Shown: in pieces, positions 1 through 13,847 of the stretch
Numbering within the stretch: the first letter of the stretch is position 1
How the letters are laid out: each line of letters starts with the position of its first letter
Virus record (IMG/VR): IMGVR_UViG_3300045988_007046
Coordinates: 1 to 51,479 of that record
Source: a virus
Taxonomy: Duplodnaviria > Heunggongvirae > Uroviricota > Caudoviricetes
Direction: 5' to 3' (one strand)
DNA: 51,479 nucleotides
The notes under the pieces: model-generated
What the model was told of the DNA's origin: nothing
Seen by the model: the letters and a program-made list of their open reading frames with translations, nothing else
Databases searched by the model: none
Position numbers and translations under genes: made by a program

Positions 1-68
1 AAAATATTGTTATCTTAGAACTCGATATTCCAGATGATGAGCTAAATGATGATTATTCTTGTGATAAT

Positions 69-323
69 ATGTCGAGTGTAGCAAGTTTTACAGAGTACTT
101 TGATGAAAACTGGATTAAAAAGGTCTATACAACAGAGTTTAACGCTATGTATTCGCCTTTTTGTCTTCCTTCACTGGATAACCCAAATATGAACTATCTT
201 GATGAGACATTAGAACTACTTGCTAAAAGTGTTCAACAGTCGGACAGTATTCAGGTTTTTTGTGACATCATAGATACACTGACAGGAAACATTGCAGAAG
301 AGGATTTAAAGAGCTTTTTCTAA
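69..323 (+). CDS. hypothetical protein (small early-region ORF)
   Basis: 84-aa ORF in a co-oriented run of small ORFs; followed by a GC hairpin plus T-run at 356-376. Confidence 0.45.
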   Translation: MSSVASFTEYFDENWIKKVYTTEFNAMYSPFCLPSLDNPNMNYLDETLELLAKSVQQSDSIQVFCDIIDTLTGNIAEEDLKSFF

Positions 324-355
324 AAACCTATGCAATCACCTTATAAACACTAATC

Positions 356-376
356 AGCCCCTTGTAGGGGCTTTTA
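356..376 (+). terminator. rho-independent terminator-like hairpin
   Basis: AGCCCC-TTGT-GGGGCT stem-loop followed by TTTT. Confidence 0.5.
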
Positions 377-389
377 GAGGGCTTAAATC

Positions 390-623
390 ATGCTTACAAC
401 CATTTATCTCATCCTCTCAATTTGTAATGGCCATTCATGTGACTTTAAAGGGCTTGAAGAGTTTACAGGAAGTAAAGAAAATGCTATTCAAGTTTGCCAG
501 ATAGCAAGGCAAGACTATCCCGCCAGTGATGATATACAATGTTACTTTAAGACAGAAGATGACGACGGAATCTATTTCGACAGTGTTGACGGTCAATATG
601 AAATTATCATTGAAAAAGACTAG
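390..623 (+). CDS. hypothetical protein
   Basis: 77-aa ORF; hairpin/RBS cassette follows at 636-714. Confidence 0.45.
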   Translation: MLTTIYLILSICNGHSCDFKGLEEFTGSKENAIQVCQIARQDYPASDDIQCYFKTEDDDGIYFDSVDGQYEIIIEKD

Positions 624-635
624 ACAAGCCTGATA

Positions 636-714
636 AAAGTCTGTAAATTGTCAATCAACGGGGAGGGAATGACCTTCCCCACTAAATAAAACCCTTAAAC
701 TAGGAGATTCAAAA
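636..714 (+). repeat. conserved intergenic hairpin+RBS cassette, copy 1
   Basis: AAAAGTCTGTAAATTGTCAATCAACGGGGAGGGAATGACCTTCCCCACTAAATAAAACCCTTAAACTAGGAGATTCAAAA directly upstream of ATG at 715; GGGGAGG/CCTTCCCC hairpin plus AGGAG Shine-Dalgarno. Confidence 0.7.
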
Positions 715-1056
715 ATGGCTTATGTAACCGTAATTACCGATAAAGCTGGCGCATCTTGGTCAACTCAAGTAAGTGATAAGATGTCACCTATGCAGTGCCT
801 AAAATACTTTGAACAGTGGAACAAAGGCGAGGACACAAGCCCCTTTCAAGTGATGCAGATTATCCATGTAGATAACGAAGGGAATAAAACGGTTTTAAAT
901 AGTGAATACTACGCAAGCCGTTTTGAAACGAGAAGTAAAACAATGAAGCTTTTACGTGAATCCGGTTATGCCCATATCGCCGCGTTAATCTGGGATGACC
1001 TGCTAAAAAACCAACGTATCAGCTATGTAAAGCCTGAAAAAATATTCATCAGTTAA
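715..1056 (+). CDS. hypothetical protein
   Basis: 113-aa ORF; start sits at the fixed distance from the AGGAG of the cassette. Confidence 0.55.
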   Translation: MAYVTVITDKAGASWSTQVSDKMSPMQCLKYFEQWNKGEDTSPFQVMQIIHVDNEGNKTVLNSEYYASRFETRSKTMKLLRESGYAHIAALIWDDLLKNQRISYVKPEKIFIS

Positions 1057-1080
1057 TCAATAACTTACAAAAAACTTTTA

Positions 1081-1125
1081 AAAAAGTGTTGACAATACCC
1101 CTTGACATTGGTAACTTTGTTCGAG
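1081..1125 (+). promoter_or_regulatory. sigma70-like promoter candidate (AAAAGTGTTGACA family)
   Basis: TTGACA at 1089-1094 preceded by an A-tract; second TTGACA at 1102-1107; the -10 is ambiguous. Confidence 0.35.
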
Positions 1126-1207
1126 GGGGTTTATCTAAAAGGGATTCACTTAAAAGATTCTTTATAGATAAGCTCAAAAAATTACTTGCAATCAACTATC
1201 AAAACAA

Positions 1208-1276
1208 GTAAATTACTAATCAACGGGAAGGCAATAACCTCCCCACTAAATAAAGTCCTAAACTGGAGATTCTAAA
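1208..1276 (+). repeat. conserved intergenic hairpin+RBS cassette, copy 2 (diverged)
   Basis: GTAAATTACTAATCAACGGGAAGGCAATAACCTCCCCACTAAATAAAGTCCTAAACTGGAGATTCTAAA upstream of ATG at 1277. Confidence 0.65.
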
Positions 1277-1807
1277 ATGAACAAATTTCAAGCTATCAAC
1301 TTCATTCGTTCAAATGCTGTAATGTCTAAGCCTGTAAAAGATACATACGAATTCCGTTGTAATGGGGTACATTTCGCAACAATCACCAAATCAGAAAACG
1401 GGGCTTATTACGTTCATCGTCGTAATGTTTCCACTGTTGTAGTCTCTCACTTTATGCAAGCTGTAGCGGAATTATTACCGTTATTCTTAGAGATTTACTT
1501 AGATGAGTGTAAAAACGTTCACAACCACGTTAAAAACCTTTTAAACGGTTATAAAATGGCTTATGAACGTTCTATCAAGTCCTTAAACAAGTTCTATAAA
1601 GCCCCTGAAAACTCTGTTGCTTCAGCCTATGGCGTAGGCGGTTGGACTGTTAGTCTCTTCGAAGTGGAAGAAATCGAGCTTTACGACCATCGACCTAACG
1701 GTTACTCTAAGACTCTCGGTGAAGGTTTAACGTTCAATATCAAGAACTTAGAAAAAACTTTAAAAGATATTGAAAAAGATATTGACGAGACAATAAAAAG
1801 TCTGTAA
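1277..1807 (+). CDS. hypothetical protein
   Basis: 176-aa ORF preceded by cassette copy 2; its 3' end (AAAAGTCTGTAA) is itself the start of cassette copy 3. Confidence 0.6.
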   Translation: MNKFQAINFIRSNAVMSKPVKDTYEFRCNGVHFATITKSENGAYYVHRRNVSTVVVSHFMQAVAELLPLFLEIYLDECKNVHNHVKNLLNGYKMAYERSIKSLNKFYKAPENSVASAYGVGGWTVSLFEVEEIELYDHRPNGYSKTLGEGLTFNIKNLEKTLKDIEKDIDETIKSL

Positions 1808-1873
1808 ATTGTCAATCAACGGGGAGGGAATGACCTTCCCCACTAAATAAAACCCTAAACTGGAGTTATCAAG
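1797..1873 (+). repeat. conserved intergenic hairpin+RBS cassette, copy 3
   Basis: Nearly identical to copy 1 (AAAAGTCTGTAAATTGTCAATCAACGGGGAGGGAATGACCTTCCCCACTAAATAAAACCC...), upstream of ATG at 1874. Confidence 0.7.
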
Positions 1874-2137
1874 ATGGAAAACGTAGAATTAACCACACTT
1901 TTACAAATTGCAACTGACAAAGAAGATGTAGCACTGTTTCACCGTATCGAAAGCGATTTATTCAATGGTGAAATCATCAAAGAGTCTTACGAAGTTGTCG
2001 GATTCAAAGATGGTAAAGCGTTTGGCTTTTTTGACCTCGACAAAGGCAACGCTGTCACAAAGTATGATGTCGTATCTTGTGAGATTCTTACAAAATACAA
2101 CGAAAAAAGGCTTGCAACATACGCCAATATGCAGTAA
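1874..2137 (+). CDS. hypothetical protein
   Basis: 87-aa ORF preceded by cassette copy 3. Confidence 0.55.
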   Translation: MENVELTTLLQIATDKEDVALFHRIESDLFNGEIIKESYEVVGFKDGKAFGFFDLDKGNAVTKYDVVSCEILTKYNEKRLATYANMQ

Positions 2138-2203
2138 ATTACTAATCAACGGGAGGCGATAACCTCCCCACTAAATAAAACCCTTAAACTAGGAGATTCA
2201 AAA
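2137..2203 (+). repeat. conserved intergenic hairpin+RBS cassette, copy 4
   Basis: GTAAATTACTAATCAACGGGAGGCGATAACCTCCCCACTAAATAAAACCCTTAAACTAGGAGATTCAAAA upstream of ATG at 2204; GGGAGG/CCTCCC hairpin. Confidence 0.7.
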
Positions 2204-2452
2204 ATGGCAACTATCCGCGCTACTGTCAATGCCTATGGCTGTTATACTCTGGACGTTAAATTCGATATTGGTGGAACTGATGAGTGTTTTTCATTAGTGA
2301 AGACAGTTATCAAACAAGTTATTCCAGATTATAACCCTACTGATGACTTCTGGAAAGATGCTGTAAAAGAGGCATTAAACGACGAGCATCACTATCATTA
2401 CTGGGGTGACTTGATTGTTTCCCTGTACTACAATAAACAAGGTTACAACTAA
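2204..2452 (+). CDS. hypothetical protein
   Basis: 82-aa ORF preceded by cassette copy 4; terminator downstream. Confidence 0.55.
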   Translation: MATIRATVNAYGCYTLDVKFDIGGTDECFSLVKTVIKQVIPDYNPTDDFWKDAVKEALNDEHHYHYWGDLIVSLYYNKQGYN

Positions 2453-2490
2453 TCGACGCAGCGGGGCTAAATAGCCCCAGATACCTCAAC

Positions 2491-2517
2491 AGCCCCTATT
2501 TAAAGGGGCTTTTTTAC
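2491..2517 (+). terminator. rho-independent terminator
   Basis: AGCCCCT-ATTTA-AGGGGCT hairpin followed by TTTTTT; a second GGGGCT/AGCCCC hairpin sits at 2463-2480. Confidence 0.6.
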
Positions 2518-2519
2518 GT

Positions 2520-4100
2520 CTATTGAATCCTTATACAATCCCTTTCCAGAATCTTATCAGACCTTAAAAGCAATAACTCTATAGTCTACTCTATAACCTC
2601 TTATCAAATCAACTTAAATAAAAGCCAATAACCCCCAGAAAGGGGATGGCCCATTTAAACGCTCTATAAAGCTCTATAACAGCCTTATCAACCTAACTTA
2701 AGGGATTGCATTAACCAACCTTAAAAAGCTCTTTACAGGGCTTTATAGAGACTTAAAAGAATCTTATAAGGGTGTAAGCTTTATCATCTCGTTAGTATCT
2801 TGTGAATAACTAAAAAGGGCTATGAGATAGGAATCTATCGAATCCTATTGTTAGTGTCTTAAAAGTATGTTATAGGGGCTTAAAAGTTACTTCAAAGTTA
2901 CGTAAAAGGGGTTATAAAGTTACGTAAATGCTAACCCCCTTAACAAATTCTTAACAATCCCTACATAGTTATGCTTGTTAGAGACTTGTTAGCCACTTGT
3001 TAAATCTCTGTTAAGACCACGTAAAAGCCTTGTAAGAGTCTTTGACATAGCCTTAAAAGTTCCTGTAAAGCCCTATAAAGAGGTGTCTGTATAGTTGGGG
3101 TGTAACTACTAGGAAGAGACTTAAAAGGGGCTATACAGAGCTATAGAGAGCTTTTAAGAGGTATGTTTAAGGAATCACTAAGAAGGGAAAGGGAACGATA
3201 AGAAAGAGATAGTGACCATGTTAATAGCTTGTTAAAAAGATTAAACACTTGTTAGAGACTTGTTAATTATCTTAACAAAATAACTCTTAAAAATTAACTT
3301 GTTAGCTCTTGTTAGTCATCTGTTAAGATTCTGTAAAGCCCATGTATCAACTGTTAAGAAACTGTTAAGCCCTTGTTAGTTCTGTTAAGAATCTGTTAAG
3401 ACCTATGAAGAGTTGTTAAGAGCTTGAGAGAGTTGTTAAGAAATTGTTAAGGATATTTTAAAATTTTGCAAAGTACTTGTAAGGGAGTTGTTAAGGGCTA
3501 CCAAGCAGATATACACCCTATTCAGATATTTTTGAGTTCCTTCAAAGACCCTAAAAAATGACTTGATAGTCCTATTTTATAAAAATTTTAAGATTCTGAA
3601 TAATTACCTAGACAGTCTTTTAAAAATACAGGTAATAACAGGCTTATAAGATACCTTGTTAGTACCGTGTTAGACCTTGTGAGATAAGGTCTGTAAAGAT
3701 ATTCCTGTTAAGTTTGTTAAAACAGTCTATATAGAGGCTTAGTAATACCTAGTGAACACCTATAGAGAGTAACATAGCTGACATAGAGATTAAGAGGTGT
3801 ATAGGAGCTTCTAAGAGGGTATAGAGAGATGGTTAAGGTGATTGTATAGGTTGTTTAGAAGGCTTGTTAGAAGAGTGTTTAGAAGGGCTATTTAGAAGGG
3901 TTATACAGAGGGCTATTAAGACCACTAGATAGTTACTAAGATACTATATAGTACTATATAACTATATAGAGAGTAAGATTAAGAAGGTTGTTAAGAAGGA
4001 TAGATATTTTATTCACATATGATGGTGACCAAGAGGTTGGGACAACCGATAAAATTTTATAAAAATTAAAAAGCCCCCAATTAAGGAGGCTCTTAAGATA
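2520..4100. repeat. 1.6-kb ORF-free iteron-rich region
   Basis: No ORF of 60 aa or more on either strand; dense degenerate direct repeats CTTGTTAG/CTGTTAAG/GTTGTTAAG (densest 2960-3050, 3216-3500, 3650-3730), tandem GTTTAGAAGG x4 (3863-3912), ACTATATAG x3 (3936-3965). Confidence 0.7.
4061..4091 (-). terminator. rho-independent terminator-like hairpin (minus strand)
   Basis: On the minus strand, AGCCTCC...GGGGGCT hairpin followed by a T-run, directly downstream of the 4103-4726 ORF stop. Confidence 0.4.
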
Positions 4101-4102
4101 TT

Positions 4103-4726
4103 TTAAATCAGTGTTTCCAGAACTGTCTTCAGTGATGACTTGGTTGTCTGATAAAAATGAGTAAATCCATTGTTGTTATCGAATATCTGCATCATGATAT
4201 CATCACCCTTGATTGGGTAAACTCGGATATCATAGTGAAAACCATTAAAGACACAAGAGCCATTACAGAATGCACTAAAGTCATCAACTGAGATATACTC
4301 TTCATGTCCTGTGATTTTTATACAAACGCCTTTACTCGGTCTCTTAGGGTTGATATCTTCCATCACAGACATACTCTGTCCACCAAGAGATACCATAGTG
4401 ACCACTTTACGGTTCTTCTGTTTAAAGTACATCTTAACTTTCTGCAAAGTGTCTTCATAGAATGGATAAGACTTCTCTACAAAGATTCCTTCAAGTGGCT
4501 CTTTACCATTTTCAACTTCTCGGTTATGCCGTACTGCAAAGATAATTTGTTCGAACCAGTCAAGATTTTCTTCGGAGAGTGCTTCCCGAACATCCTTCCA
4601 GTCAAGTACTAAGTAGTTACCTTCAACTTCTTTTAAGTTATCTTTTTCCATATCTATCACACCATTATCGTAAAACTTGATATTCTGGTACTGCGAATTT
4701 ATTACTATTATTCTTGATGAGGTCAT
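4103..4726 (-). CDS. hypothetical protein
   Basis: 207-aa ORF; overlaps the upstream gene by 62 nt, so the true start may be the internal Met near 4651. Confidence 0.5.
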   Translation of the reverse strand: MTSSRIIVINSQYQNIKFYDNGVIDMEKDNLKEVEGNYLVLDWKDVREALSEENLDWFEQIIFAVRHNREVENGKEPLEGIFVEKSYPFYEDTLQKVKMYFKQKNRKVVTMVSLGGQSMSVMEDINPKRPSKGVCIKITGHEEYISVDDFSAFCNGSCVFNGFHYDIRVYPIKGDDIMMQIFDNNNGFTHFYQTTKSSLKTVLETLI

Positions 4727-5129
4727 CCTCTGAAACTAAAAATGTAATACCACATAAGTGTCTGTAACGACTATCATACTCGAATATCTTAAACAGATAT
4801 TTACCATCATGATAAACCTGTTGCACTTCACCTTCTGCAACAATCTCGCCTGTAATAAAATTTTTTAGTTTATACACATTACCAACCTTAGGTACTGTTT
4901 TCATCTCAGGCTCTTTTAGTGCTACACCTATTTTTACATCACCGAGTAAATGAGAACTCTCAAAAGCTACGTGTTTCATATAGGCTTCTGAGCATTCCCA
5001 AATAAAACAATGTACAAGAACCTTAGCAGCATGTCTTGAGCAGTTCAACTTATCACAAATTTCTGTGTACATCTCATCTTTAGTAGAATTGTCAAGCATT
5101 GCTCTTTGCACTACTTCTTTAATTTTCAT
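4665..5129 (-). CDS. hypothetical protein
   Basis: 154-aa ORF in a co-oriented compact block. Confidence 0.5.
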   Translation of the reverse strand: MKIKEVVQRAMLDNSTKDEMYTEICDKLNCSRHAAKVLVHCFIWECSEAYMKHVAFESSHLLGDVKIGVALKEPEMKTVPKVGNVYKLKNFITGEIVAEGEVQQVYHDGKYLFKIFEYDSRYRHLCGITFLVSEDDLIKNNSNKFAVPEYQVLR

Positions 5130-5547
5130 AAGCTCTCCGAATAACCCTATTAAGCATCTCTAAAGTCAGCTTTCCAGATTCTAAATGTGGCATAACAAGC
5201 TTTAAAGCTTTTTCAACATCATGCACAACATCTATTATACCTTCCGCGTAGGCTTCTACAAGGATATCTTTTACATTTTGTGATTTACCTTTTTGTGGTA
5301 TCACTAGACGCATATCAAACTCATTTGCTTGAGGATGGTTCTTACCACGCCAGAAACCGTCCTTATCAAAGCTTATAAAGTTATCCTCATTAAAATTAAT
5401 ACCACAAACCTTAAACTTATCTAAAACTATGCAGTTGAGAGGGTAATCATCACTTGCATCATTCATTCCAAGAAACTTAACAGTAGCTATATACCTCTGT
5501 GTCTTTGCATCTACAACGTCAAGCTCTTTACCTATAAGTTCTTTCAT
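5119..5547 (-). CDS. hypothetical protein
   Basis: 142-aa ORF; 11-nt overlap with the downstream gene suggests coupling. Confidence 0.5.
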   Translation of the reverse strand: MKELIGKELDVVDAKTQRYIATVKFLGMNDASDDYPLNCIVLDKFKVCGINFNEDNFISFDKDGFWRGKNHPQANEFDMRLVIPQKGKSQNVKDILVEAYAEGIIDVVHDVEKALKLVMPHLESGKLTLEMLNRVIRRAYEN

Positions 5548-5600
5548 TTCGCTACCTTCTAAGTTCCTACAAAGGGGCTATCAAGTAACCCCTCAAGTTA

Positions 5601-5825
5601 TTACTCAGATTTTTCAGTCTTCTTATCAGATTTCTTACTAGTCTTCTTCTCAGCTTTCTGTTCAGGCTCCTTCTCAGAAGTTGCCTTAATAACCATATCA
5701 AGAAGCTCTGATAAGTCACTCTTCAGAAGTGTTACAGGCTGCTCGTTGTAGAAGTTTTTGTCAAGATAAACTTTGAATTCTTCTATAGAAGGAAATCCAA
5801 AAATTGGTACAGGTGTCTTAATCAT
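5601..5825 (-). CDS. hypothetical protein (Lys/Glu-rich C-terminus)
   Basis: 74-aa ORF; C-terminal KKTSKKSDKKTEKSE tail. Confidence 0.4.
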   Translation of the reverse strand: MIKTPVPIFGFPSIEEFKVYLDKNFYNEQPVTLLKSDLSELLDMVIKATSEKEPEQKAEKKTSKKSDKKTEKSE

Positions 5826-5901
5826 TACTTAGTCTCTCCATAGGCATCTTTTAAGATTGCCTTGTTAATCATTTCAGCGATTGCAAAACGAACACATACA
5901 G

Positions 5902-6435
5902 CTATAATTGTAGGTTGCATTCTTTACTTACCTCTTCAAGTTTAACCTCAGAATCCTTAAGTCGTTTCTTATGAACTCTGAATCTTAGTAGTGAGATAAT
6001 GATACCAGCTAAAGGAACAGCATACAAGTACCATACATCATATACCTTTGCAGTAATCTGTGTGATAGTTAAATCTTGAGCTATGTAGCTGATTGCTGAT
6101 ACTGCCAGTAACATTGCTAAGAAGAACGCCAGTACCATAACAATACTTAGGCAGCCTCTGGCATGGTGTTCATGCTTAATACACTTATTCTTCTCTTCAA
6201 CAACCCTGTTGTAGTCATTTGTAAAATCTCTGTAGAAAGCTTTCAAGTATTCTTGAGTGTAGCCTTCAAAGCAACCTGTACCGTACCAATAATCACCACC
6301 AAAATGTGCTATGATACCAGTATCCCCATTTGGTTTGGTTACTCTTAGTGAAGTATGATGACCAGTCTTCTGATAATCTATCTTGTATCTTTCTTCGTAA
6401 ATCATTTCCCAACCCCTCTCAATCGTTTGTTCCAC
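5902..6435 (-). CDS. hypothetical membrane protein
   Basis: 177-aa ORF; hydrophobic stretch LSIVMVLAFFLAMLLAVSAISYIA consistent with one TM helix. Confidence 0.5.
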   Translation of the reverse strand: MEQTIERGWEMIYEERYKIDYQKTGHHTSLRVTKPNGDTGIIAHFGGDYWYGTGCFEGYTQEYLKAFYRDFTNDYNRVVEEKNKCIKHEHHARGCLSIVMVLAFFLAMLLAVSAISYIAQDLTITQITAKVYDVWYLYAVPLAGIIISLLRFRVHKKRLKDSEVKLEEVSKECNLQL

Positions 6436-6620
6436 TCAAGGTCAACAAGCCTTTGCAGGACTTTACCTCTAGGTGTTACACCTTTTAAATCTGCATCGTA
6501 GCAACGGTAAAAGTCACCTTCAGCGTGTTTACCGTAGCATTTTCTGATATTCTGGCTCCTACGATACTGCTCTAACAGGGACAGTTTGTAGTAGTCTTCA
6601 ACTGTAGTTAGTTTTTTCAT
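6402..6620 (-). CDS. hypothetical protein
   Basis: 72-aa ORF overlapping the downstream gene. Confidence 0.4.
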   Translation of the reverse strand: MKKLTTVEDYYKLSLLEQYRRSQNIRKCYGKHAEGDFYRCYDADLKGVTPRGKVLQRLVDLEWNKRLRGVGK

Positions 6621-6703
6621 TCTTTTACCATGTCTCTTATCTAGAAACTAAAAAGGGAACTACCTCTCGATAGCTCCCATCATAATCAGTGTTGTATACT
6701 CGG

Positions 6704-7285
6704 TCAAGAGTATTTTTTAGGCAGCAATGCACTGCGCTTGTTACTCTCTTCACTCAATAGTGCAATGAAATCATCACTTTTACCTTTCCACGGGCTGAAT
6801 GAAGGGATATGTTCGCGGATAGCCTCAATCACTGTTTTAAGTGCTGTGTTCTTCATCCACCAATCAGAATCTGCTGATGCTACCACGTAGTATCCACCGT
6901 CATCAGTTAAAATTGGCTCTGAAATACATGGTGAAATCAAAGTGGTGATGATTGAACCGTTGTTCATGTAGTATGTGCGCTTCATAACCTTTTCAAGAAG
7001 CTTGTGAAGGTCACCAAACAGTGTTACAAGTTCTTTGTGGTCGATGTCTTTTTCGAGGCTTGCTCGGTACTTCAATAGTGCGGCATCAACCTCTCTGTCA
7101 TTGAACTTGAAATATTGAACTTCTTCAACAAGGCAAACACTGATGTTGTTAACATTCATAGTCAACTTACAAACTTTTACAGGAGAGTTGATATTTGGTT
7201 GAAAAAGTGCAATACACCCTTCAATATTTCCAAAATGCTGTACCAGTGTTACTTGTGGAGTGATATTCTGTTGCTCTTCGGACAT
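6704..7285 (-). CDS. hypothetical protein
   Basis: 193-aa ORF. Confidence 0.5.
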   Translation of the reverse strand: MSEEQQNITPQVTLVQHFGNIEGCIALFQPNINSPVKVCKLTMNVNNISVCLVEEVQYFKFNDREVDAALLKYRASLEKDIDHKELVTLFGDLHKLLEKVMKRTYYMNNGSIITTLISPCISEPILTDDGGYYVVASADSDWWMKNTALKTVIEAIREHIPSFSPWKGKSDDFIALLSEESNKRSALLPKKYS

Positions 7286-7629
7286 TACAGTTTCCTCATT
7301 AAATACTTTTTAAGTTGTGTGTTTGGTTTCTCAAAAACTTCTATAGAAGATATCTTTACAGATTCACCACGCATACCAGTATGTTTGAATATATAGTACT
7401 CTAACATCCCTATGTACTTTGCTGGCAAGTCATACTTGACATACACCGTTACAGAATCTTCAAACTCAACAACCTTTGTACCATCTTTGTAGTTAAACTC
7501 TTTAGGATGGTTGTAGTTGTCTATATCGTACATTAAGAAGAGTCTTTTACGTTGTAAGTCAAGCTTATTTGTTAAAGACTCTTTAATATCTGAGAAGTTT
7601 TTGTAAACTGTGACATGGAGCTTACTCAT
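7285..7629 (-). CDS. hypothetical protein
   Basis: 114-aa ORF; 1-nt overlap with neighbour. Confidence 0.5.
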   Translation of the reverse strand: MSKLHVTVYKNFSDIKESLTNKLDLQRKRLFLMYDIDNYNHPKEFNYKDGTKVVEFEDSVTVYVKYDLPAKYIGMLEYYIFKHTGMRGESVKISSIEVFEKPNTQLKKYLMRKL

Positions 7630-7915
7630 CGTTAAACTCTCTGACGAAGAAATAGTTGACTTTATTATTACCTACCATAAGGTCAAAGCAGGTGTTCTCA
7701 AAAGGCTTGTTGTAGGCATCATATGAAGTGTACGTATCAGCTACTTGCTTAGTAGTGAGCTTTTTACTTGATGGATTTAAGAGGCCACCATACAGTTTCT
7801 TGATAGCCTCTTCTACAACAGACCATATAATTTCGTCAGTAATTTCTTCGTACAGGTCAAGTTCACGCTCTAGTGAGAAGTCACAAATAGGGAAAATAAC
7901 CTGTACTTTACTCAT
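7622..7915 (-). CDS. hypothetical protein
   Basis: 97-aa ORF; overlapping start/stop with neighbours. Confidence 0.5.
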   Translation of the reverse strand: MSKVQVIFPICDFSLERELDLYEEITDEIIWSVVEEAIKKLYGGLLNPSSKKLTTKQVADTYTSYDAYNKPFENTCFDLMVGNNKVNYFFVREFNDE

Positions 7916-8313
7916 TAACGAATCACCTGTGAGACTTGAATTGCTTCAGTTACTGACAAGTCACCTACTTTCTCTTCTTTGATAAAGGTGAAGGTAAGTT
8001 CAACAGGCTCTCGCTCTTCTTGCTCAACTGGAACACCATTAAGCTCATCAAAGATTGATTGGGTTGTCCAATCTTCACCACCATCTGGGTAGTGGATTGC
8101 GTAAAGAGGGAACTCCCTGTCAAACCAACCAAATACAGGACAACCATCTTCATCATCTCGTACTCGATGAAGTGTGCTTCCAGACCCTGTAAACTGAAGG
8201 AATAAATCTCCGTTGCACTTGTATATTACTGCATCGGCAAAACCTATATCTTCTCGACCATCATGGCCAAACGTGTCAACTTTTACTTGGATATCTCTAA
8301 CATCTTTATTCAT
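7915..8313 (-). CDS. hypothetical protein
   Basis: 132-aa ORF. Confidence 0.5.
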   Translation of the reverse strand: MNKDVRDIQVKVDTFGHDGREDIGFADAVIYKCNGDLFLQFTGSGSTLHRVRDDEDGCPVFGWFDREFPLYAIHYPDGGEDWTTQSIFDELNGVPVEQEEREPVELTFTFIKEEKVGDLSVTEAIQVSQVIR

Positions 8314-8704
8314 AAAAACCTCTCTCTGCTTGTTCGATTTTTGCTTTTAGAACTTCACACCGTTCAATGTGATATCTGGCTTCATGCTCATGTGTCGCCA
8401 AAGTTCTTTCAAGAATGGTTTTATAGTAACCTGCAAGTTGCTCTCTTGTCAATGGGTTCTCTGAAATAATATCGAGACCACTTTCACCTAGAGTATTAAA
8501 CTGTCCATGCTCATTTACATGGTAAGTTTCAAACTTGAATAAACCATTATTAGCAGACTCAATAGGCGATAGTTCAACCAACTCAACAGTAAACCTTGTA
8601 TGTACCCTATCTCCAACTGTAACAACGTTACTTCCAATGATACGTACAAGCGAGCCGTTACGAGTGTACTTAAAAGTTCCAAAGTCACTAGCCCAAAGCT
8701 TCAT
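8306..8704 (-). CDS. hypothetical protein
   Basis: 132-aa ORF. Confidence 0.5.
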   Translation of the reverse strand: MKLWASDFGTFKYTRNGSLVRIIGSNVVTVGDRVHTRFTVELVELSPIESANNGLFKFETYHVNEHGQFNTLGESGLDIISENPLTREQLAGYYKTILERTLATHEHEARYHIERCEVLKAKIEQAERGFYE

Positions 8705-8722
8705 AGTTTTCTCCTTAGAAAA

Positions 8723-8746
8723 TAAAAAAGGCTCCCGAAGGAGCCT
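8723..8746 (-). terminator. rho-independent terminator (minus strand)
   Basis: Minus strand reads GGCTCC-TTCG-GGAGCC followed by TTTTTTATTTT, immediately downstream of the lysozyme stop. Confidence 0.65.
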
Positions 8747-8755
8747 ATGAAGATA

Positions 8756-9220
8756 TTACTTTGGGTATACACTGTCAAGATAAATGTCAGCTTCCATTCT
8801 ACGTCTGTTTTTCAGTCCGTTTGAAGTGACCTTCTGACCTTTGACTGTAACCTTGTTCCACCACTGCATAGCTTCTGCACAACCTACCTTATTACCAGCA
8901 TTGTGGCGCTTGATAAATGTAGAATCCTGCATAGCTGTGATACCGATGTTGTATGTTTCACTTACAAGTGCATCGAACTCATTCTGAGAAGTTGGAACCT
9001 TGATGGCTTTGTTCACTGCTACAACGAACTTTTCAACATCTGCGAGAAGATACTGTTCAGCTTGTTCAGCAGTAATTTTCATACCCATCTTAACAGGTTT
9101 TCCGTCAATACGGATTGTCCCATACCCAATTGTTGGGATTCCGGCAGAGTCTTCGTAAGCCTCTAACTTCAGACCTTCGAAGAACTTAATAGCATCTAAA
9201 CCTTTTCTTGAGAGTTGCAT
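8756..9220 (-). CDS. lysozyme / endolysin (glycoside hydrolase family 24, T4-lysozyme-like)
   Basis: N-terminal FEGLKLEAYEDSAGIPTIGYGT motif typical of GH24 lysozymes; 154 aa; terminator downstream. Confidence 0.8.
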   Translation of the reverse strand: MQLSRKGLDAIKFFEGLKLEAYEDSAGIPTIGYGTIRIDGKPVKMGMKITAEQAEQYLLADVEKFVVAVNKAIKVPTSQNEFDALVSETYNIGITAMQDSTFIKRHNAGNKVGCAEAMQWWNKVTVKGQKVTSNGLKNRRRMEADIYLDSVYPK

Positions 9221-10104
9221 TATGCCTCCCCTGCTGGATTAACTGTAACTGTTGCTGCATTAGATGTTACAGAGCCACCTGCGCCAGTAACTACACAGGT
9301 GTAGCTTCCTGAATCAGCAGCGGTTGCTCCTTCTTTGGTGTAGGTTGCAGTAGTTGCATCGAGGATGTCTTCCTCATCTTTCTTCCACTGATAACCTGTC
9401 GCACCTGTTGCCACAACATTCAGTGTTAAGGTCTCACCTTCAGTGATTTCTTGATTGGTTGGTTGCTGAGTGATGACAGGAAGTGCATTCACAGTCACTG
9501 TTGCTGCATCTGAGGTAACACTTGTTCCACCCTCTCCAGATACAACACAAGTGTATGAACCAGCATCAGAAGGTGCTACTGACTGTTTTGTGTAAGTTGC
9601 AGAATTGGCACTAGGGATGTCCTCACCATCCTTCTTCCACTGATATCCAGTGGCGTTAGTTGCTAGAATGCTTAGAGTAAGTGTGCCACCCTCATTGACT
9701 GTTTGACCTGTCGGTTGCTGAGTAATTGCTGGTGACTTAATAGCATCCTTCAACTTAGCATTCAACATTGAGAACGGCTTAACTCTTGCCAACCATTCAC
9801 AGTAAATTGTGTCAACATCTTTACCATTGATGATTGCATACTGCAAATCCATGAAGAAATCAGCAGTTCTCATCTGTGCACCAACACTGTAAAGCAATTC
9901 ATCACTAAATGGAACTTTGTAGTCTGGTTTGTAGTCAAACTTCTCAACTTCTGCAATATCAGCTTCAGGCCAATATGAACTATAGGTAAGTGGTAAAATA
10001 GCCTCTTGATATGTTCTAAAATCATACCTCTTACCAGCCTTTACATTTGCAATGAAACCCTTCACAAACTCTTTGAAGTCTGGGTAAGTCTTTGCTTTAA
10101 TCAT
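9220..10104 (-). CDS. Ig-like-domain protein (two tandem I-set-like repeats after an N-terminal domain)
   Basis: Two repeats of the pattern ATGYQWKKDGEDI...ATYTK...DSGSYTCVV...AATVTVN; N-terminal 125 aa is paralogous to the adjacent 10101-10472 product. Confidence 0.65.
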   Translation of the reverse strand: MIKAKTYPDFKEFVKGFIANVKAGKRYDFRTYQEAILPLTYSSYWPEADIAEVEKFDYKPDYKVPFSDELLYSVGAQMRTADFFMDLQYAIINGKDVDTIYCEWLARVKPFSMLNAKLKDAIKSPAITQQPTGQTVNEGGTLTLSILATNATGYQWKKDGEDIPSANSATYTKQSVAPSDAGSYTCVVSGEGGTSVTSDAATVTVNALPVITQQPTNQEITEGETLTLNVVATGATGYQWKKDEEDILDATTATYTKEGATAADSGSYTCVVTGAGGSVTSNAATVTVNPAGEA

Positions 10105-10472
10105 TTCTTTTTAGCCTCTAAATGTGCGTTTAGTCTAAAATAACCTTTGTGATGCGGAGATACATCACCAACAACAATACCTTTAACCTTATAACCTTTA
10201 CCAATTACATACTGGATATACATAAGGAATCTTCCAAGTCCAACAATATGGAACATTGGATATAATAGGTTCTCAGAATCTGGAATATTGATTTCAGGTT
10301 TGTAGGTACGCTGTTCGATTGTTGGTGTAATATCTTCTTCAGGCCATTTGCTGAGTCTCCATGTCAAAGGTGTTGGGATAACATCATTAAGGTTGTACCT
10401 TTCACCATTTTGCACGGAATTGATATAGGATTGTAGGAAGCAATAAAAGTCTTTTGCACTCTTAGCTTTCAT
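10101..10472 (-). CDS. hypothetical protein, paralogue of the N-terminal domain of the Ig-like protein
   Basis: Shared pattern MKAK..DF..F......V..G.RY...........WPE.DI.....YKP....P....LLY with 9220-10104. Confidence 0.55.
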   Translation of the reverse strand: MKAKSAKDFYCFLQSYINSVQNGERYNLNDVIPTPLTWRLSKWPEEDITPTIEQRTYKPEINIPDSENLLYPMFHIVGLGRFLMYIQYVIGKGYKVKGIVVGDVSPHHKGYFRLNAHLEAKKK

Positions 10473-10519
10473 TAAATATCCTTATAAATAGTTAAAGGGG
10501 CATCAGCCCCTATTCACAC

Positions 10520-11110
10520 TTAAGCTTTGGTCTTAAGTAGGTTCTTAAGTTTTTTAAGATTCATACTCTCATCAAACTTAAAACCAAATCCATTGACATA
10601 ATCAATGAACTCGGATTTCTTACTGAGTGACAATGCGTAACTCATATCAAAGTTCTTACTTGTTTCTGCGTCTGGACTAGAGTTCACATCAAATGAAATT
10701 TCTGTAGGCTCTTGCTTACTTTTTCTCATATTATCAACCAACAAACATGTATAGTTTGCTGGATAGAAATTTACACTACCATCAACGTAGCTGTACTTAT
10801 TATTATGGATAAGGTTGGAAAATACCTTAAGGAATGTTTCTGAGTCGTGGCAAACAAGTTTGAATTGGCTGCTCTCTCCAAGCGCAACTAATGAGTACGG
10901 ACTTTCACTATCAAAGTCATAATTTTGATTCGATGCCGTTACTGTTACACGCATCAAGTTATTAGCAATAGTCTTCTGTTTAAAAGAATTTTGAACATAG
11001 TGAAGACCTCTATCACACTGATTGACTAGCTCTTTAAGCAGGTCATTTGCATATGGTGAATTAATTGATACAGAGCCATCACTATTGTAATTAAAACTTA
11101 CTGTTAACAT
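10520..11110 (-). CDS. hypothetical protein
   Basis: 196-aa ORF. Confidence 0.5.
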   Translation of the reverse strand: MLTVSFNYNSDGSVSINSPYANDLLKELVNQCDRGLHYVQNSFKQKTIANNLMRVTVTASNQNYDFDSESPYSLVALGESSQFKLVCHDSETFLKVFSNLIHNNKYSYVDGSVNFYPANYTCLLVDNMRKSKQEPTEISFDVNSSPDAETSKNFDMSYALSLSKKSEFIDYVNGFGFKFDESMNLKKLKNLLKTKA

Positions 11111-11337
11111 TTTTCAGTTCTCCTGCGGTTTATAATTTTGCTGCAATAGAGAAACGAAGTAAACTCACTGGAAGAAACCATTAAGTGTTGTTCACTAGAT
11201 TGAGCCATTGCCCTGAAATACATTCCAGTCAAAGCATCATAGTGACTATTCTTTCCAATTGAGGTTATATAGCCATGACTCTTTGCAGTTTGATATAAAT
11301 CTATAATATCTGCGATTTCTAATTGGGAACTACACAT
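11104..11337 (-). CDS. hypothetical protein
   Basis: 77-aa ORF overlapping the downstream gene by 7 nt. Confidence 0.4.
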   Translation of the reverse strand: MCSSQLEIADIIDLYQTAKSHGYITSIGKNSHYDALTGMYFRAMAQSSEQHLMVSSSEFTSFLYCSKIINRRRTEKC

Positions 11338-11570
11338 AGATAATCCTCTTGTCTTCTGTAATTTTGAAAGAACAGGTACAGACCAATTTCAGAGGATGAA
11401 TAGTAGATTAACTCTACCCTTTTTGATTCCTTACAGTGATTGGTATTCTTACCTTTCTTCGGTTTATTTGATTTTCTCATTAAGTCTCCTTTGTAGAACA
11501 AGGCAGACCTACAGCTTTAAGTAAGATGGTACAGTAATCCATACAACAAGTCAAGAACTATTGCAAGTTA

Positions 11571-11615
11571 AAAAAGTTGTTGACAAAGTACTTGACAAGG
11601 TGTAGGCTTATAAAT
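11571..11615 (+). promoter_or_regulatory. sigma70-like promoter candidate (AAAAAGTTGTTGACA family)
   Basis: A-tract plus TTGACA at 11579-11584, second TTGACA at 11592-11597, TATAAAT downstream; sits in the divergent region upstream of 11730. Confidence 0.4.
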
Positions 11616-11729
11616 ACTTAGAAGATAACTTAAAAGGTTCCTCTAAAAAGGCTATTTAAACAGATATCTTTCTGGATATCTATCTTTTATCTTAAAAGCC
11701 TTTTAAGAGGTCTTATAAGAGGCATACCA

Positions 11730-12101
11730 ATGAAAAACAGAACAAACAAAGGCCAGTTTAAAAAAGGCCAGTCTGGAAACCCATCTGGAAGACCAAAAGG
11801 CTCTCGTAACAAAAGCTCACTTGTAAAAGCTCAACTGACCATTGATAATTCTGCTGAGTTTGCTGCAAAGTTGTTTGAGGCGGTTGTTACAAGGGATGCT
11901 GCTAAGCTTGCAGAGTTCGGTTTGACGACTGACGATGTAAACCTGAAGTCGATGATGGAGGCTGGTAAAACCATCATGACTCACTCAGCAGGTGAGATGA
12001 AAGCGATTGCAGCAGACACTAAGAAGACCCCTGATAATGGTGGTCAGTCTCAGACAGATAACAAACCAACGTTCTCTGCTGTAGCGACTCTCAAAAAATA
12101 A
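11730..12101 (+). CDS. hypothetical small basic protein (possible DNA-binding)
   Basis: 123 aa; N-terminus KGQFKKGQSGNPSGRPKGSRNK is strongly basic and Gly/Pro-rich. Confidence 0.5.
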   Translation: MKNRTNKGQFKKGQSGNPSGRPKGSRNKSSLVKAQLTIDNSAEFAAKLFEAVVTRDAAKLAEFGLTTDDVNLKSMMEAGKTIMTHSAGEMKAIAADTKKTPDNGGQSQTDNKPTFSAVATLKK

Positions 12102-12105
12102 TTTT

Positions 12106-12150
12106 AAAAGGTGTTGACAGACTCTACAAAGTTGCTCTAAAGTCTGTCAC
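12106..12150 (+). promoter_or_regulatory. sigma70-like promoter candidate overlapping an 8-bp inverted repeat
   Basis: AAAAGGTGTTGACA with TTGACA at 12114-12119, TAAAGT about 18 nt downstream; GACAGACT...AGTCTGTC inverted repeat spans the core. Confidence 0.45.
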
Positions 12151-12182
12151 ATCAACAAACAAATGAGAGAAGAGAGTAAAAT

Positions 12183-13598
12183 ATGAGCGAATTATTTAAA
12201 CATGCGCACCTTCATGCAGGTCGAACTGAAAATGGTGCTGTAAACCATACTTCATCAATGTCTGCTCTTGTAGACTTTTACAAAGCTGCTGGTTCAAGCC
12301 GTAGCAACGTAGAAATCTTACCAGACCTGTTCTACAAAGCTTTGCGTGAGGATGTTGATGTTGCAGTTCGTATTTTGCTTCATATGCGAGATGTACGAGA
12401 AGGTATGGGTGAGCGTAAAGCCTTCAGAACTGTTTTACTTCAAGCGATTGAAGACAAAGTTTTAGAGCCTACGCAGGTTCTTCGCATTATGGATAAGATT
12501 GCAGAACTTGGTCGTTTTGATGACTTCAAAATCTTCGTAGGTACTCGTTTCGAGACAGATGCCTTCAAACATCTAGAAGCAGCATTACTAGACCCTGCAA
12601 CAGCAGGTTTGGCGGCTAAGTGGTTACCACGAGTCAAACCACGTCATAAGCAGTTTGTAAAACGTTTCTGCAAGTTTGCCAACTTGAGTGAGAAAGAGTA
12701 CCGCACACTGTTGTCTGCACTATCTGATACAGTTGAGCAAAAAATCTCTGCTAATGAGTTTGGTAAGATTGACTACAGTAAGATTCCTTCACTTGCTGCT
12801 GCACGTTACCAAAAACTGTTTAACCGCAAAGATGGAGAACGCTACAAAGCTTACATCGAGTCCTTATCAAAGGGTGAGACTAAGATTAATGCTGGTGCTG
12901 TTTACCCATACGATGTAATTAAATCTGTTAAGCATGGTAATGCAGATGTTGCTAATGAGCAGTGGAAAGCACTACCAAACTGGATGGCAGAGGGTGAAAA
13001 CATCTTGTGTATGTCTGATGTTTCAAGCTCAATGTCTTGGGTGAATTTTGGTTCAATTACTGCTCTTGATATTGGTGTTTCACTTGCATTGTATGTAGCA
13101 GAACGTAATACAGGTTGCTTTAAGAATGAGTTGATGGTTTATTCAACAAACCCTCACTTCATCGAACTGAGTGGTGATTTACGAAACCGTCATCGTCAGG
13201 TGATGCGACACGTTGAATATGGCTCAACTAACTTACAAGCAGCTTTTGACCGTATTCTTGAAACAGGTAAAAGAAACAACTTGACTCAGAAAGATATGCC
13301 AAGTAAGCTTATCATCTTCTCCGATATGGAGTTCAATCAGGTTGATGGAGCTAACGGTCGTACAAACTTTGAAGCAATTCGTAGTAAGTACAAAAAAGCT
13401 GGATACGAAATGCCTCAACTGGTATTCTGGTACTTAGCAAACCGTAATGGTACTTGCGAAGTGTCTGTTAAGGATAACGGTGTAGCAATGGTATCTGGTT
13501 TTTCTCCAGCTACTTTAAAAGCTCTGCTTGGTGGTGAGAAGTTTGACCCAATCAGCGTAATGCTCAAAGCAGTAATGATTGACCGTTATATCTGGTAA
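12183..13598 (+). CDS. vWA-domain protein, possibly Ro60/TROVE-like RNA-binding protein
   Basis: 471 aa; MIDAS-like D-x-S-x-S (MSDVSSSMSW) followed by vWA-like strands (ELMVYS, GSTNLQAAF, KLIIFSDMEF, GVAMVSGFS) whose order resembles the Ro60 C-terminal vWA domain; helical N-terminal region. Confidence 0.4.
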   Translation: MSELFKHAHLHAGRTENGAVNHTSSMSALVDFYKAAGSSRSNVEILPDLFYKALREDVDVAVRILLHMRDVREGMGERKAFRTVLLQAIEDKVLEPTQVLRIMDKIAELGRFDDFKIFVGTRFETDAFKHLEAALLDPATAGLAAKWLPRVKPRHKQFVKRFCKFANLSEKEYRTLLSALSDTVEQKISANEFGKIDYSKIPSLAAARYQKLFNRKDGERYKAYIESLSKGETKINAGAVYPYDVIKSVKHGNADVANEQWKALPNWMAEGENILCMSDVSSSMSWVNFGSITALDIGVSLALYVAERNTGCFKNELMVYSTNPHFIELSGDLRNRHRQVMRHVEYGSTNLQAAFDRILETGKRNNLTQKDMPSKLIIFSDMEFNQVDGANGRTNFEAIRSKYKKAGYEMPQLVFWYLANRNGTCEVSVKDNGVAMVSGFSPATLKALLGGEKFDPISVMLKAVMIDRYIW

Positions 13599-13609
13599 AA
13601 AGTTTTAAA

Positions 13610-13646: not shown

Positions 13647-13699
13647 TTCTACATAGAAACGAAACGAGAGCTTTTCTAAGATACTGAAAAATATTTTAA

Positions 13700-13840: not shown

Positions 13841-13847
13841 AATTAAT

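Follow-up and report, generated by a model that had tools for sequence, protein, structure and literature searches.

The same short sequence stands directly in front of four small ORFs near the start of the DNA stretch analysed here (51,479 bp, referred to as the window), which raises the question of what this repeated sequence is and what it does for the genes behind it. The window is from a Felixounavirus (Felix O1-like phage). An earlier note on this DNA had described the repeat as a modular 5′ cassette with a hairpin and a Shine-Dalgarno (SD) sequence.

Cassette copies in the window

Four cassette copies are present, all on the + strand, which extend from the −10 box through the ATG at positions 644–717, 1209–1279, 1805–1876 and 2135–2206. 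When the whole window was searched, two diagnostic sub-patterns matched these four places only, in agreement with the four copies described before. The matches expected by chance were 0.48 and 0.17, and none of the shuffled sequences (0/100) reached four. The leader word AAACT(A)GGAG matched at the four cassettes and at one stray site, with none besides. The four-copy repeat is confirmed as real and chance is ruled out by a wide margin. The features of the window are as follows, with the promoter elements given as predictions.

611–620, + strand: A-rich, UP-element-like tract 5′ of the copy 1 −35; A-tract conservation across 11 contexts
621–626, + strand: putative copy 1 −35 TAGACA, overlapping the TAG stop of ORF 390–623; promoter scan TAGACA-N17-TAAATT 9/12, position-specific −35 signal
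644–649, + strand: putative copy 1 −10 TAAATT; promoter scan, T−12, A−11 and T−7 invariant in 11/11 contexts
660–680, + strand: copy 1 hairpin GGGGAGGG-AATGA-CCTTCCCC; 8 bp including one G·U, minimum free energy (MFE) structure
681–717, + strand: copy 1 A-rich leader, SD AGGAG (702–706) and ATG (715–717) of ORF 715–1056; copy alignment
1186–1191, + strand: putative copy 2 −35 TTGCAA, exactly 17 nt before TAAATT
1209–1214, + strand: putative copy 2 −10 TAAATT; sub-pattern match, context alignment
1225–1244, + strand: copy 2 hairpin GGGAAGG-CAATAA-CCTCCCC; 6 bp with internal mismatch, −8.0 kcal/mol, weakest of the four
1245–1279, + strand: copy 2 leader, SD TGGAG (1264–1268) and ATG (1277) of ORF 1277–1807
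1782–1787, + strand: putative copy 3 −35 TTGACG, within the 3′ coding end of ORF 1277–1807; promoter scan 9/12
1805–1810, + strand: putative copy 3 −10 TAAATT, its TAA being the stop of ORF 1277–1807; promoter scan
1821–1841, + strand: copy 3 hairpin, same sequence as copy 1; MFE fold
1842–1876, + strand: copy 3 leader, SD TGGAG (1861–1865) and ATG (1874) of ORF 1874–2137 (variable module)
2112–2117, + strand: putative copy 4 −35 TTGCAA, within the 3′ coding end of ORF 1874–2137
2135–2140, + strand: putative copy 4 −10 TAAATT, its TAA being the stop of ORF 1874–2137
2151–2168, + strand: copy 4 hairpin GGGAGG-CGATAA-CCTCCC; 6 bp, MFE fold
2169–2206, + strand: copy 4 leader, SD AGGAG (2191–2195) and ATG (2204) of ORF 2204–2452; in the 44-nt exact match with copy 1
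2491–2510, + strand: canonical intrinsic terminator (stem and TTTTTT) closing the cassette block; terminator scan; corresponds to Felix O1 terminator t23 (PMC3185647)

In the alignment of the copies, the shared sequence runs from GTAAATT to the ATG, and the coding flanks on both sides are unrelated. Exact identity extends over at most 61 nt between copies 1 and 3 (635–695 = 1796–1856), over 44 nt between copies 1 and 4 (676–719 = 2165–2208) and over 20 nt between copies 3 and 4; a core that is '77/77 identical', as claimed previously, was not recovered. Copy 1 is a chimera, with exact matches to copies 3 and 4. The distance between ATG and hairpin end was determined to be 34 nt and the gap between the SD sequence (A/T)GGAG and the ATG to be 8 nt in all four copies, close to the earlier values of about 35 nt and 8–9 nt. 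The stop codon of the upstream ORF, which had been placed inside the cassette throughout, lies there in copies 3 and 4 (TAAATT). In copy 1 the stop (TAG, 621–623) instead overlaps the −35, and copy 2 is located 130 nt past the preceding ORF.

Predicted promoter elements

There is a strong case for reading the conserved TAAATT as the −10 of a sigma-70 promoter; each copy has a TTGACA-like −35 exactly 17 nt before it. When 11 unrelated upstream contexts were compared, the −35 score against TTGACA was 5.0/6 at the exact N17 spacing, compared to 0.7–2.2 at other offsets, and T−35, G−33, T−12, A−11 and T−7 were invariant. An A-tract is found directly 5′ of the −35, with A in 9–11 of the 11 contexts at the three best-conserved positions. 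Among relatives the −10 varies (TAAAGT, TAATAT, TAGTAT, TACTAT), with TAnnnT kept in all. Copies 1 and 3 were called independently by the promoter scan, whereas copies 2 and 4 match the sigma-70 consensus at just 8/12 and stay under the scan threshold, which counts against the promoter reading. The earlier view of a modular cassette holds, but it had overlooked the predicted promoter inside (TAAATT as −10, −35 at N17), and the boundaries drawn at that time left out the −35 and the A-tract, which lie 23–35 nt farther upstream.

Expression of Felix O1 ORFs 16, 20, 21 and 22, each of which has a cassette in front, was maximal at 5 min according to RT-PCR (PMC3185647). A literature search on Felix O1-like phages found no reports of transcription starts, RNA half-lives, reporter assays or RNA-seq. 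Two other readings of the same letters were rejected: TTGTCA at 648–653 has no −10 at the correct spacing and is not kept as a hexamer in copies 2 and 4, and a T4-late-like TATAAATA reading of CTAAATAAA is not conserved, since Mooglevirus has AACAATCC.

Hairpin structure and conservation

Based on the −10/−35 assignment, the hairpin would begin about 3–4 nt past the predicted transcription start site (TSS), which is C656/A657 in copy 1: the stem starts 10 nt past the −10 box, leaving 3–4 unpaired 5′ nt, provided that the spacing to the TSS is canonical. The G-run/C-run hairpin is the MFE structure in 4/4 copies, with weak folding z-scores of −0.8 to −2.2. The copy 1 hairpin was calculated to have about −15.2 kcal/mol on the + strand versus −12.3 on the − strand. 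In these folds the true SD is essentially free, with just weak 3-bp pairing, which argues against an SD-sequestering switch.

The position of the hairpin is constant across 67 unique variants. A MAFFT alignment of the variants was out of structural register and was replaced by a covariance-model alignment, in which 96% of cells are paired (66 distinct copies). Within the outer seven pairs, 15 changes affect one side only, and every one of them proceeds via G·U. Diverged copies have other stem sequences (GGGGC/GCCCC, GGGGU/GCCCC and GGGA/UCCC) and retain complementarity. In the sister type-B cassette the hairpin is located between −35 and −10; it outscores all shuffles and slid controls, and in phiEa21-4 one G-C pair is replaced by U-A. 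Covariation in type A, the type of the window, was no better than in shuffles (score 0.050 vs 0.046, one double-sided change). The hairpin is degenerate or missing in the Felix O1 ORF15, Moogle ORF0 and SME50 fam 7 units, so it is dispensable at least in those.

The covariation result and the hairpin-less units, together with the long exact identities and chimeric copies inside one genome, would suit cassettes that are passive products of duplication or gene conversion of one promoter region, with a functional promoter and a hairpin without selected function. We consider this unlikely, as complementarity is retained by differing stems at an unchanged position across three genera, sense-strand mismatches are overwhelmingly G·U and the type-B hairpin passes both shuffle and slide controls.

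T7-type RNase III sites call for an RNA duplex of at least about 20 bp, and stems of 6–8 bp are too short for this. The terminator scan did not call the cassette hairpin on either strand, and its tail (ACTAAATAAAA) is without a U-tract. The hairpin is neither a canonical terminator nor an RNase III site. A terminator on the opposite strand, as annotated in KhF2, was likewise rejected because of the negative scan, the G·U pairs that become C·A mismatches and the lack of genes on that strand. An SD/anti-SD mimic (GGAGG:CCUCC), acting as ribosome decoy or SD-sequestering switch, fails as the diverged stems lose those sequences.

If each ORF has its own promoter, neighbouring genes are not merely divided by a processing site. 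An alternative without promoter, in which a single long early transcript carries the cassettes as intercistronic RNA elements (endonuclease processing sites or translational-operator hairpins), could account for the fixed placement relative to SD and ATG, the G·U wobbles, which favour a role at the RNA level, and the AU-rich single-stranded stretch after the stem, which resembles an RNase E site. It leaves unexplained why invariant −35 and −10 positions occur at N17 spacing with an A-tract in unrelated, partly coding contexts. Moreover, the stem is far below the requirement of RNase III, a search of the cassettes against Rfam 15 gave no match at E ≤ 1, and diverged copies without GGAGG/CCUCC show that an SD-mimic operator is not conserved. 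We regard this alternative as highly improbable; neither the RNA processing site nor the translational operator suggested in the earlier note gained positive evidence. A processing role could, however, be compatible with a promoter in the same cassette.

For the cassette with its own promoter, the hairpin may act as a 5′ mRNA stabiliser and/or as a read-through attenuator. The 3–4 unpaired 5′ nt are as many as protection from RppH/RNase E would allow, which counts against the stabiliser role. It is possible, though in our view doubtful, that the hairpin mainly works as a transcription attenuator or insulator against upstream read-through, with expression set by the own promoter and negligible stabilisation. 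The promoter-early stem-loops (PeSLs) of T4-like phages provide a precedent: a PeSL stem-loop lowered the expression of lacZ placed behind it to a similar extent as rrnB T1 (PMC2839356), and since it terminated experimentally, attenuation may be the main role of the hairpin. The type-B hairpin straddles the −35/−10 spacer and would thus be found in read-through RNA alone, as suits an insulator, and annotation software labels the hairpin as a terminator in some records. On the other hand, no U-tract follows the stem, the terminator scan called it on neither strand, and a true T-run terminator at 2491–2510 closes the block. In addition, the type-A hairpin would occupy about +4 to +25 of its own transcript, where an efficient terminator would abort transcription before the ORF.

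Related genomes and module exchange

A search of relatives for further copies, as proposed earlier, yielded 8–18 units per genome, in collinear order within a single block of small genes and with individual modules present or absent. In the complete KhF2 genome, 12/12 units are found within one 7-kb block on one strand. Cassette BLAST matched only Felixounavirus and Mooglevirus and detected no similarity to T4-type PeSLs. A pattern scan of IMG/VR gave many chance matches in unrelated contigs, of which only loci with the shared SD leader were kept. The ORFs of the cassette block fall into PHROGs without assigned function, and a Pfam search of these ORFs found no domain.

At least six gain or loss events were observed, with breakpoints at varied points of the cassette (−35, −10, stem start and leader). 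They concern the ORF 1874–2137 family (Felix O1, UAB_Phi87), ORF15 (window-type phages, Moogle), ORF12, ORF14 together with ORF19, and ORF14. Of about 250 related records, 123 carry ORF 1874–2137, which is common among Escherichia phages and rare among Salmonella phages. The breakpoints inside cassettes support the previously suggested modular 5′ unit with exchange points for small early genes; of the 'shuffling' of genes, module gain and loss were found, but no reordering. Together, these sequence comparisons argue strongly for the promoter and modular-exchange reading of the cassettes.

Frequent module exchange might also be expected if the GGGG...CCCC inverted repeat were recognised at the DNA level by a protein dedicated to recombination or mobilisation, as in integron-like gene cassettes, which was speculated by Arbiol et al. 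for PeSLs. The crossovers are, however, spread over −35, −10, stem start and leader instead of one site, as predicted by general homologous recombination. A conserved G·T mismatch weakens a DNA cruciform, no candidate recombinase was found, and the neighbouring ORFs are without Pfam domains. Such a DNA target is therefore very unlikely.

Proposed function and significance

Taken together, we think it likely that each copy is a self-contained expression cassette for an early gene, with promoter, 5′ hairpin and SD, and that the resulting modules are exchanged by recombination. The order of elements would be A-rich tract, sigma-70 promoter, hairpin, unstructured A-rich leader, SD and ATG. Right after infection, host RNA polymerase would initiate at about C656/A657 and at the equivalent sites of the other copies, providing every small gene with its own transcript. 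The hairpin at the extreme 5′ end may shield this mRNA from 5′-end-dependent decay (RppH/RNase E), and in RNA reading through from upstream it may act as a weak attenuator or as a barrier to 3′-exonucleases. Identities of 40–60 nt between cassettes would serve as substrate for ordinary homologous recombination, by which modules could be deleted, inserted or swapped with expression signals staying intact.

This model would fill a gap in Felix O1 early transcription with about 8–18 previously unrecognised, predicted host-type promoters for small early genes, and would extend modular gene exchange of the PeSL type past T4-like phages to Ounavirinae, which are widely used in typing and biocontrol of Salmonella and E. 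coli. It offers a concrete account of the differences in early accessory genes among otherwise near-identical isolates, e.g. ORF 1874–2137. For phage engineering, the cassettes may serve as insulated expression slots that are ready to use and as points where recombination is predictable. Existing ideas are consolidated and none is overturned.

Comparison with known systems

The 'direct repeats' that Whichard et al. described for Felix O1 (2010, PMC3185647) are the same sequences as the cassettes: their 57-bp repeat makes up the core of the type-B cassette, and their 39-bp repeat, TTGACACTGG...TAAATTACACATCAAC, corresponds to a putative type-A promoter. In that genome paper they were listed as repeats only, their nature as promoter, hairpin and exchange point was not recognised, and the control of early transcription was stated to be unknown (PMC3185647).

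Rho-independent terminators share the GC-rich stem-loop and the intergenic position, and some genome records annotate the cassette hairpin accordingly. The cassette hairpin differs from them by the missing U-tract, by its location downstream of the promoter start and by not being called in the scan. With the 5′ UTR stabilisers of ompA and papA, the cassettes would share a stable hairpin a few nt from the 5′ end (predicted here), an unstructured leader and a ribosome-binding site. In such stabilisers the hairpin lies within about 2–4 unpaired nt of the true 5′ end. In contrast to these, the 5′ end of the cassette is predicted, and the cassettes recur as a family in front of many genes. The principle of a 5′ stem-loop as mRNA stabiliser reportedly goes back to Emory, Bouvet and Belasco in 1992, whose work is among the references of the review PMC3997798.

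PeSLs are known in the T4-like phages RB49/phi1, T4/PST and KVP40/nt-1 (Arbiol 2010, PMC2839356; Comeau 2014, PMC4122927). Judged from sequence, the cassettes match their defining anatomy, which makes the comparison with T4-like promoter-stem-loop repeats in the earlier note an apt one. Both feature an upstream stop, an AT-rich tract, a sigma-70 −35/N17/−10 arrangement, SD and ATG, and a G-run/C-run stem-loop with G·T pairs. Both are clustered before small ORFans of a hyperplastic early region, and both show indels between close relatives with crossovers at varied points of the element. PeSL subclasses are defined by stem-loop position; they include 'between −35 and −10', which corresponds to type B, and 'downstream of the −10', which corresponds to type A.

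However, the cassettes belong to the Ounavirinae lineage and have no sequence similarity to T4-type PeSLs, so the relationship is architectural and not demonstrably homologous. In contrast to PeSLs, the whole type-A hairpin is predicted to be transcribed as the 5′ end of its own mRNA, the units have an almost identical 35-nt leader, and the TAA of the −10 also terminates the preceding gene. Promoter and terminator or attenuator activity and the formation of mini-circles belong to the hallmarks of PeSLs; the cassettes of this study may share these, with the early RT-PCR timing of Felix O1 ORFs 16, 20, 21 and 22 as indirect support. It appears quite unlikely that PeSL-type cassettes form a general integron-like exchange system of large virulent phages, with a hairpin read by a conserved phage factor and an architecture that arose or spread across Straboviridae and Ounavirinae; in such a system, the factor may be a protein that promotes the excision of ORFan mini-circles and their capture, or else a marker protecting early mRNAs from phage-induced decay. 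A literature search found no link between PeSLs and Felix O1. PeSL-type cassettes had not been described in Ounavirinae before and are new for this group, while their kind is already known from T4-like phages.

Phage identity and reality of the four repeats

The sequence places the window in Felixounavirus, among the Felix O1-like myoviruses of subfamily Ounavirinae; its bases 1-6000 show about 93% identity to phages ULIM8, ASO1A and fjerdesal as well as to some 250 further records. The four repeats described in the earlier note are all present on the + strand, and each of two diagnostic sub-patterns matched at these copies only within 51,479 bp (0.2-0.5 matches expected). When aligned, the copies are similar from GTAAATT through ATG, while their flanks are unrelated. 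The claimed spacing of the Shine-Dalgarno (SD) motif (8-9 nt) was confirmed at 8 nt from ATG in 4/4 copies, as was a hairpin about 35 nt before the start codon, which ends 34 nt 5' of ATG in copies 1-4. An identity of 77/77 between two copies was not reproduced, the longest exact identities being 61 nt (copies 1 and 3) and 44 nt (copies 1 and 4). The embedded stop codon of the upstream ORF holds for copies 3 and 4, but not for copies 1 and 2. We regard the four repeats as a real, functional-looking element.

Predicted promoter elements

The units are very probably cassettes that carry a sigma-70 promoter and at which modules are exchanged. In the complete relative KhF2 (L004 and L005), all units were found within one 7-kb block on one strand, and inspection of longer upstream sequence revealed a TTGACA-like hexamer exactly 17 nt 5' of TAAATT in every unit. 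The window's cassettes (type A) carry the following predicted elements.

Predicted promoters of the four window cassettes
Copy 1, + strand: -35 box TAGACA at 621-626, -10 box TAAATT at 644-649
Copy 2, + strand: -35 box TTGCAA at 1186-1191, -10 box TAAATT at 1209-1214
Copy 3, + strand: -35 box TTGACG at 1782-1787, -10 box TAAATT at 1805-1810
Copy 4, + strand: -35 box TTGCAA at 2112-2117, -10 box TAAATT at 2135-2140

An independent consensus promoter scan called copies 1 and 3 (9/12). We compared 59 type-A units, drawn from 11 genomes or loci, which reduce to 11 upstream contexts with less than 60% identity outside the hexamers. Across these contexts the 17-nt offset scores 5.0/6 against TTGACA, and all 27 other offsets score 0.7-2.2; T-35, G-33, T-12, A-11 and T-7 are invariant, and an A-tract lies directly 5' of the -35 box. 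In copies 3 and 4 and their Mooglevirus orthologues, the initial TAA of the -10 box is the stop codon of the preceding gene, and the -35 box and spacer are coding sequence. The -10 variants of relatives (TAAAGT, TAATAT, TAGTAT and TACTAT) all keep TAnnnT, which is also kept in units without an upstream ORF; conservation of the -10 box is therefore not owed to the stop codon.

Hairpins of type A and type B

The type-A stem begins 10 nt 3' of the -10 box. A canonical start 7-8 nt past the -10 box, which is C656/A657 in copy 1, would give a transcript that opens with 3-4 unpaired nt and continues into the stem. The hairpin is the MFE structure in 4/4 window copies and identically positioned in 67 unique variants; folding z-scores in the window are weak (-0.8 to -2.2). 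In a covariance-model alignment of 133 copies (66 distinct), 96% of cells are paired, with double-sided covariation among the distinct copies no higher than in shuffles. Within the seven outer pairs, 15 changes are one-sided and every one passes via G.U; one stem position varies between G.U (45 sequences), G-C (6) and A-U (3). Diverged stems of Mooglevirus and Felix O1 differ yet are complementary (GGGGC/GCCCC, GGGGT/GCCCC, GGGA/TCCC and GGGC/GCCC). Because of the common G.U pair, the sense-strand RNA is more stable than the antisense (-15.2 versus -12.3 kcal/mol).

The same block of relatives holds a second cassette type, type B, which is absent from the window. It reads TTTACA-N17-TAnnnT; the hairpin GGGGYTTA...TAAGCCCC sits between the two boxes, and AGATAAAGAGCTTTAC and the SD leader known from type A come next. 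This pattern fits 60 of 62 unique sequences.

Location of type-B sites
Felix O1 (L009): 8640-8716 and 10310-10386
Michonne (L006): 6540-11900

The type-B hairpin is 97% paired, compared to at most 62% in slid controls. Its covariation score exceeds 500/500 shuffles. The stem shows C-G/U.G alternation and, in one lineage only, a G-C to U-A change.

A terminator scan of the window called none of the four type-A hairpins, and no U-tract follows the type-A stem. If the hairpin, at +4 to +25, were a strong terminator, the cassette would cut short its own mRNA; for this reason, and given the absent U-tract, we favour a role of the type-A hairpin as 5'-terminal stabiliser, with read-through attenuation weak at most. 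The principle of a 5' stem-loop mRNA stabiliser was reportedly described in 1992 by Emory, Bouvet and Belasco, whose papers the review PMC3997798 lists among its references. The processing-site and translational-operator readings of the earlier note gained no positive support. Judged by its position between -35 and -10, the type-B hairpin is predicted to occur in read-through RNA only, which would fit an insulator role. Such a role was shown for one stem-loop of the PeSLs, the promoter-early stem-loops of T4-like phages (PMC2839356).

Distribution in relatives

The proposed search of relatives did yield further copies: BLAST of the cassette matched 1412 places, spread over 247 records that all belong to Felixounavirus or Mooglevirus. 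An Rfam search of the cassettes gave no match. The architecture recurs, together with a related leader, in Erwinia phage phiEa21-4 (Kolesnikvirus), and the cassette family therefore covers at least three Ounavirinae genera. This phage belongs to a more distant Ounavirinae genus than the window phage. Its syntenic block (9600-16300) contains promoter-plus-stem-loop cassettes with the leader AACCCTTA-AA-GGAAT, including a class with the -10 box in the loop or 3' arm of GAGGGG...CCCCTC or GGGGTTAT...ATAACCCC hairpins.

Gain and loss of modules

Genomes carry between 8 (Felix O1) and 18 (Michonne) units. The ORFs preceded by cassettes have a median length of about 90-113 aa and fall in PHROGs of unknown function; a Pfam search of them found no domains. 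Module order is collinear between genomes, individual modules are present or absent, and the cassette upstream of a given gene may be of type A or type B depending on the phage.

Several presence/absence differences could be traced to junctions inside the cassette. Felix O1 lacks ORF 1874-2137, located between copies 3 and 4 in the window, and has a single hybrid cassette that switches from copy-3-like to copy-4-like inside TAAATT; in UAB_Phi87, which also lacks this ORF, the same switch occurs past GTCAATCAACGGG. Crossovers in the shared leader were observed for the ORF12 and ORF14+19 modules, missing in Moogle compared to Michonne, and likewise for ORF14, missing in TH10 and UAB_Phi87 compared to KhF2. 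Michonne and Sf14 have a 46-aa ORF15 that both the window and Moogle lack; the junction lies at the -35 box TACTTGCAA in the window and in the leader in Moogle. Copy 1 is an exact chimera, 635-695 being the same as copy 3 and 676-719 the same as copy 4. Crossovers are thus scattered across the entire cassette, in agreement with general homologous recombination between short identical stretches; a site-specific recombination event fits this scatter poorly.

ORF 1874-2137 is present in 123 of about 250 relatives, and its neighbouring ORFs in 193-221. It encodes 87 aa of unknown function and occurs in 70 of about 115 Escherichia-phage, 16 of about 21 Shigella-phage and 10 of 11 Citrobacter-phage records, while it is scarce in Salmonella-phage records (13 of about 75). 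It may be a host-linked accessory gene.

Other features of the window

Positions 2500-4100 form a 1.6-kb non-coding gap with convergent gene blocks on either side. The gap contains 25 copies of YTGTTAR on the + strand (about 1 expected), often phased at 10-11 nt (2975/2986/2997/3008; 3351/3362/3373/3382/3393), and 13 CTNTAAAG-like words; two repeat_regions are annotated at the equivalent position in the fjerdesal record. The gap resembles an iteron-type array and may be a replication origin or an array of protein-binding sites.

In the gap ahead of copy 2 (1086-1140) there are two overlapping TTGACA boxes (1089-1094 and 1102-1107); a C-run at about 1097-1101 forms an inverted repeat with a G-run at about 1125-1129, and TTTAT comes next. 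One promoter and one terminator are annotated at the equivalent position in ASO1A, and just 3' of it Michonne and Sf14 have the extra 46-aa ORF with its own promoter. Upstream of ORF 390-623, positions 324-389 hold a hairpin AGCCCCTTGTAGGGGCT plus TTT and an AGAGGG SD without a cassette; this ORF is probably co-transcribed with the ORF ending at 323.

A large tRNA gene cluster spans 13800-18920, where the top repeat families (D1, D2, D6, D7 and D11) are tRNA T-arm sequences; more than 20 tRNAs are annotated in the syntenic region of KhF2. Positions 46458-46854 and 47971-48215 contain 74-120-nt repeats (e.g. AAAGACCTTTTAAAAAGGTAAGTCTCATTTTAATGTAGCTGAGACTAACTACCC, 89% between 46563 and 48093) followed by CA-rich CACC-type tracts, in 3-8 copies (families D3-D5 and D12). 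Tail-fibre-like GGTGCTCACAC...CAGTTAGTGG repeats are located at 39609-42118.

Comparison with PeSLs

PeSLs consist of an upstream stop codon, AT-rich tract, sigma-70 -35/-10, stem-loop, SD and ATG, with a G(n)-loop-C(n) stem-loop that includes G.T pairs (Arbiol 2010, PMC2839356; Comeau 2014, PMC4122927). Where the stem-loop lies sets their five subclasses, among them 'between -35 and -10' and 'downstream of the -10'; PeSLs are concentrated in hyperplastic ORFan regions and mediate indels with varied crossover points (PMC2839356, PMC4122927). At the functional level, PeSLs are marked by promoter strength, terminator activity and mini-circles. The Felix O1-like cassettes share every sequence-level PeSL feature. 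However, they belong to the Ounavirinae lineage and have no detectable sequence similarity to PeSLs, the type-A hairpin lies wholly within the cassette's own predicted transcript, the leader is near-uniform among units, and the -10 box includes the stop codon.

No paper that ties PeSLs to Felix O1-like phages turned up in our literature search, nor did any transcription-start data for these phages. The Felix O1 genome paper lists 57-bp and 39-bp repeats without interpretation, calls no promoters in the cassette block and states that early transcription control is unknown; its RT-PCR table reports ORFs 16, 20, 21 and 22 at 5 min (Whichard et al. 2010, PMC3185647).

Taken together, the cassettes are best filed as a putative PeSL-like early promoter/stem-loop/SD family in Ounavirinae. 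As such, they would account for early transcription in Felix O1, explain why its accessory genes vary, and widen the reach of PeSL-type modular evolution.
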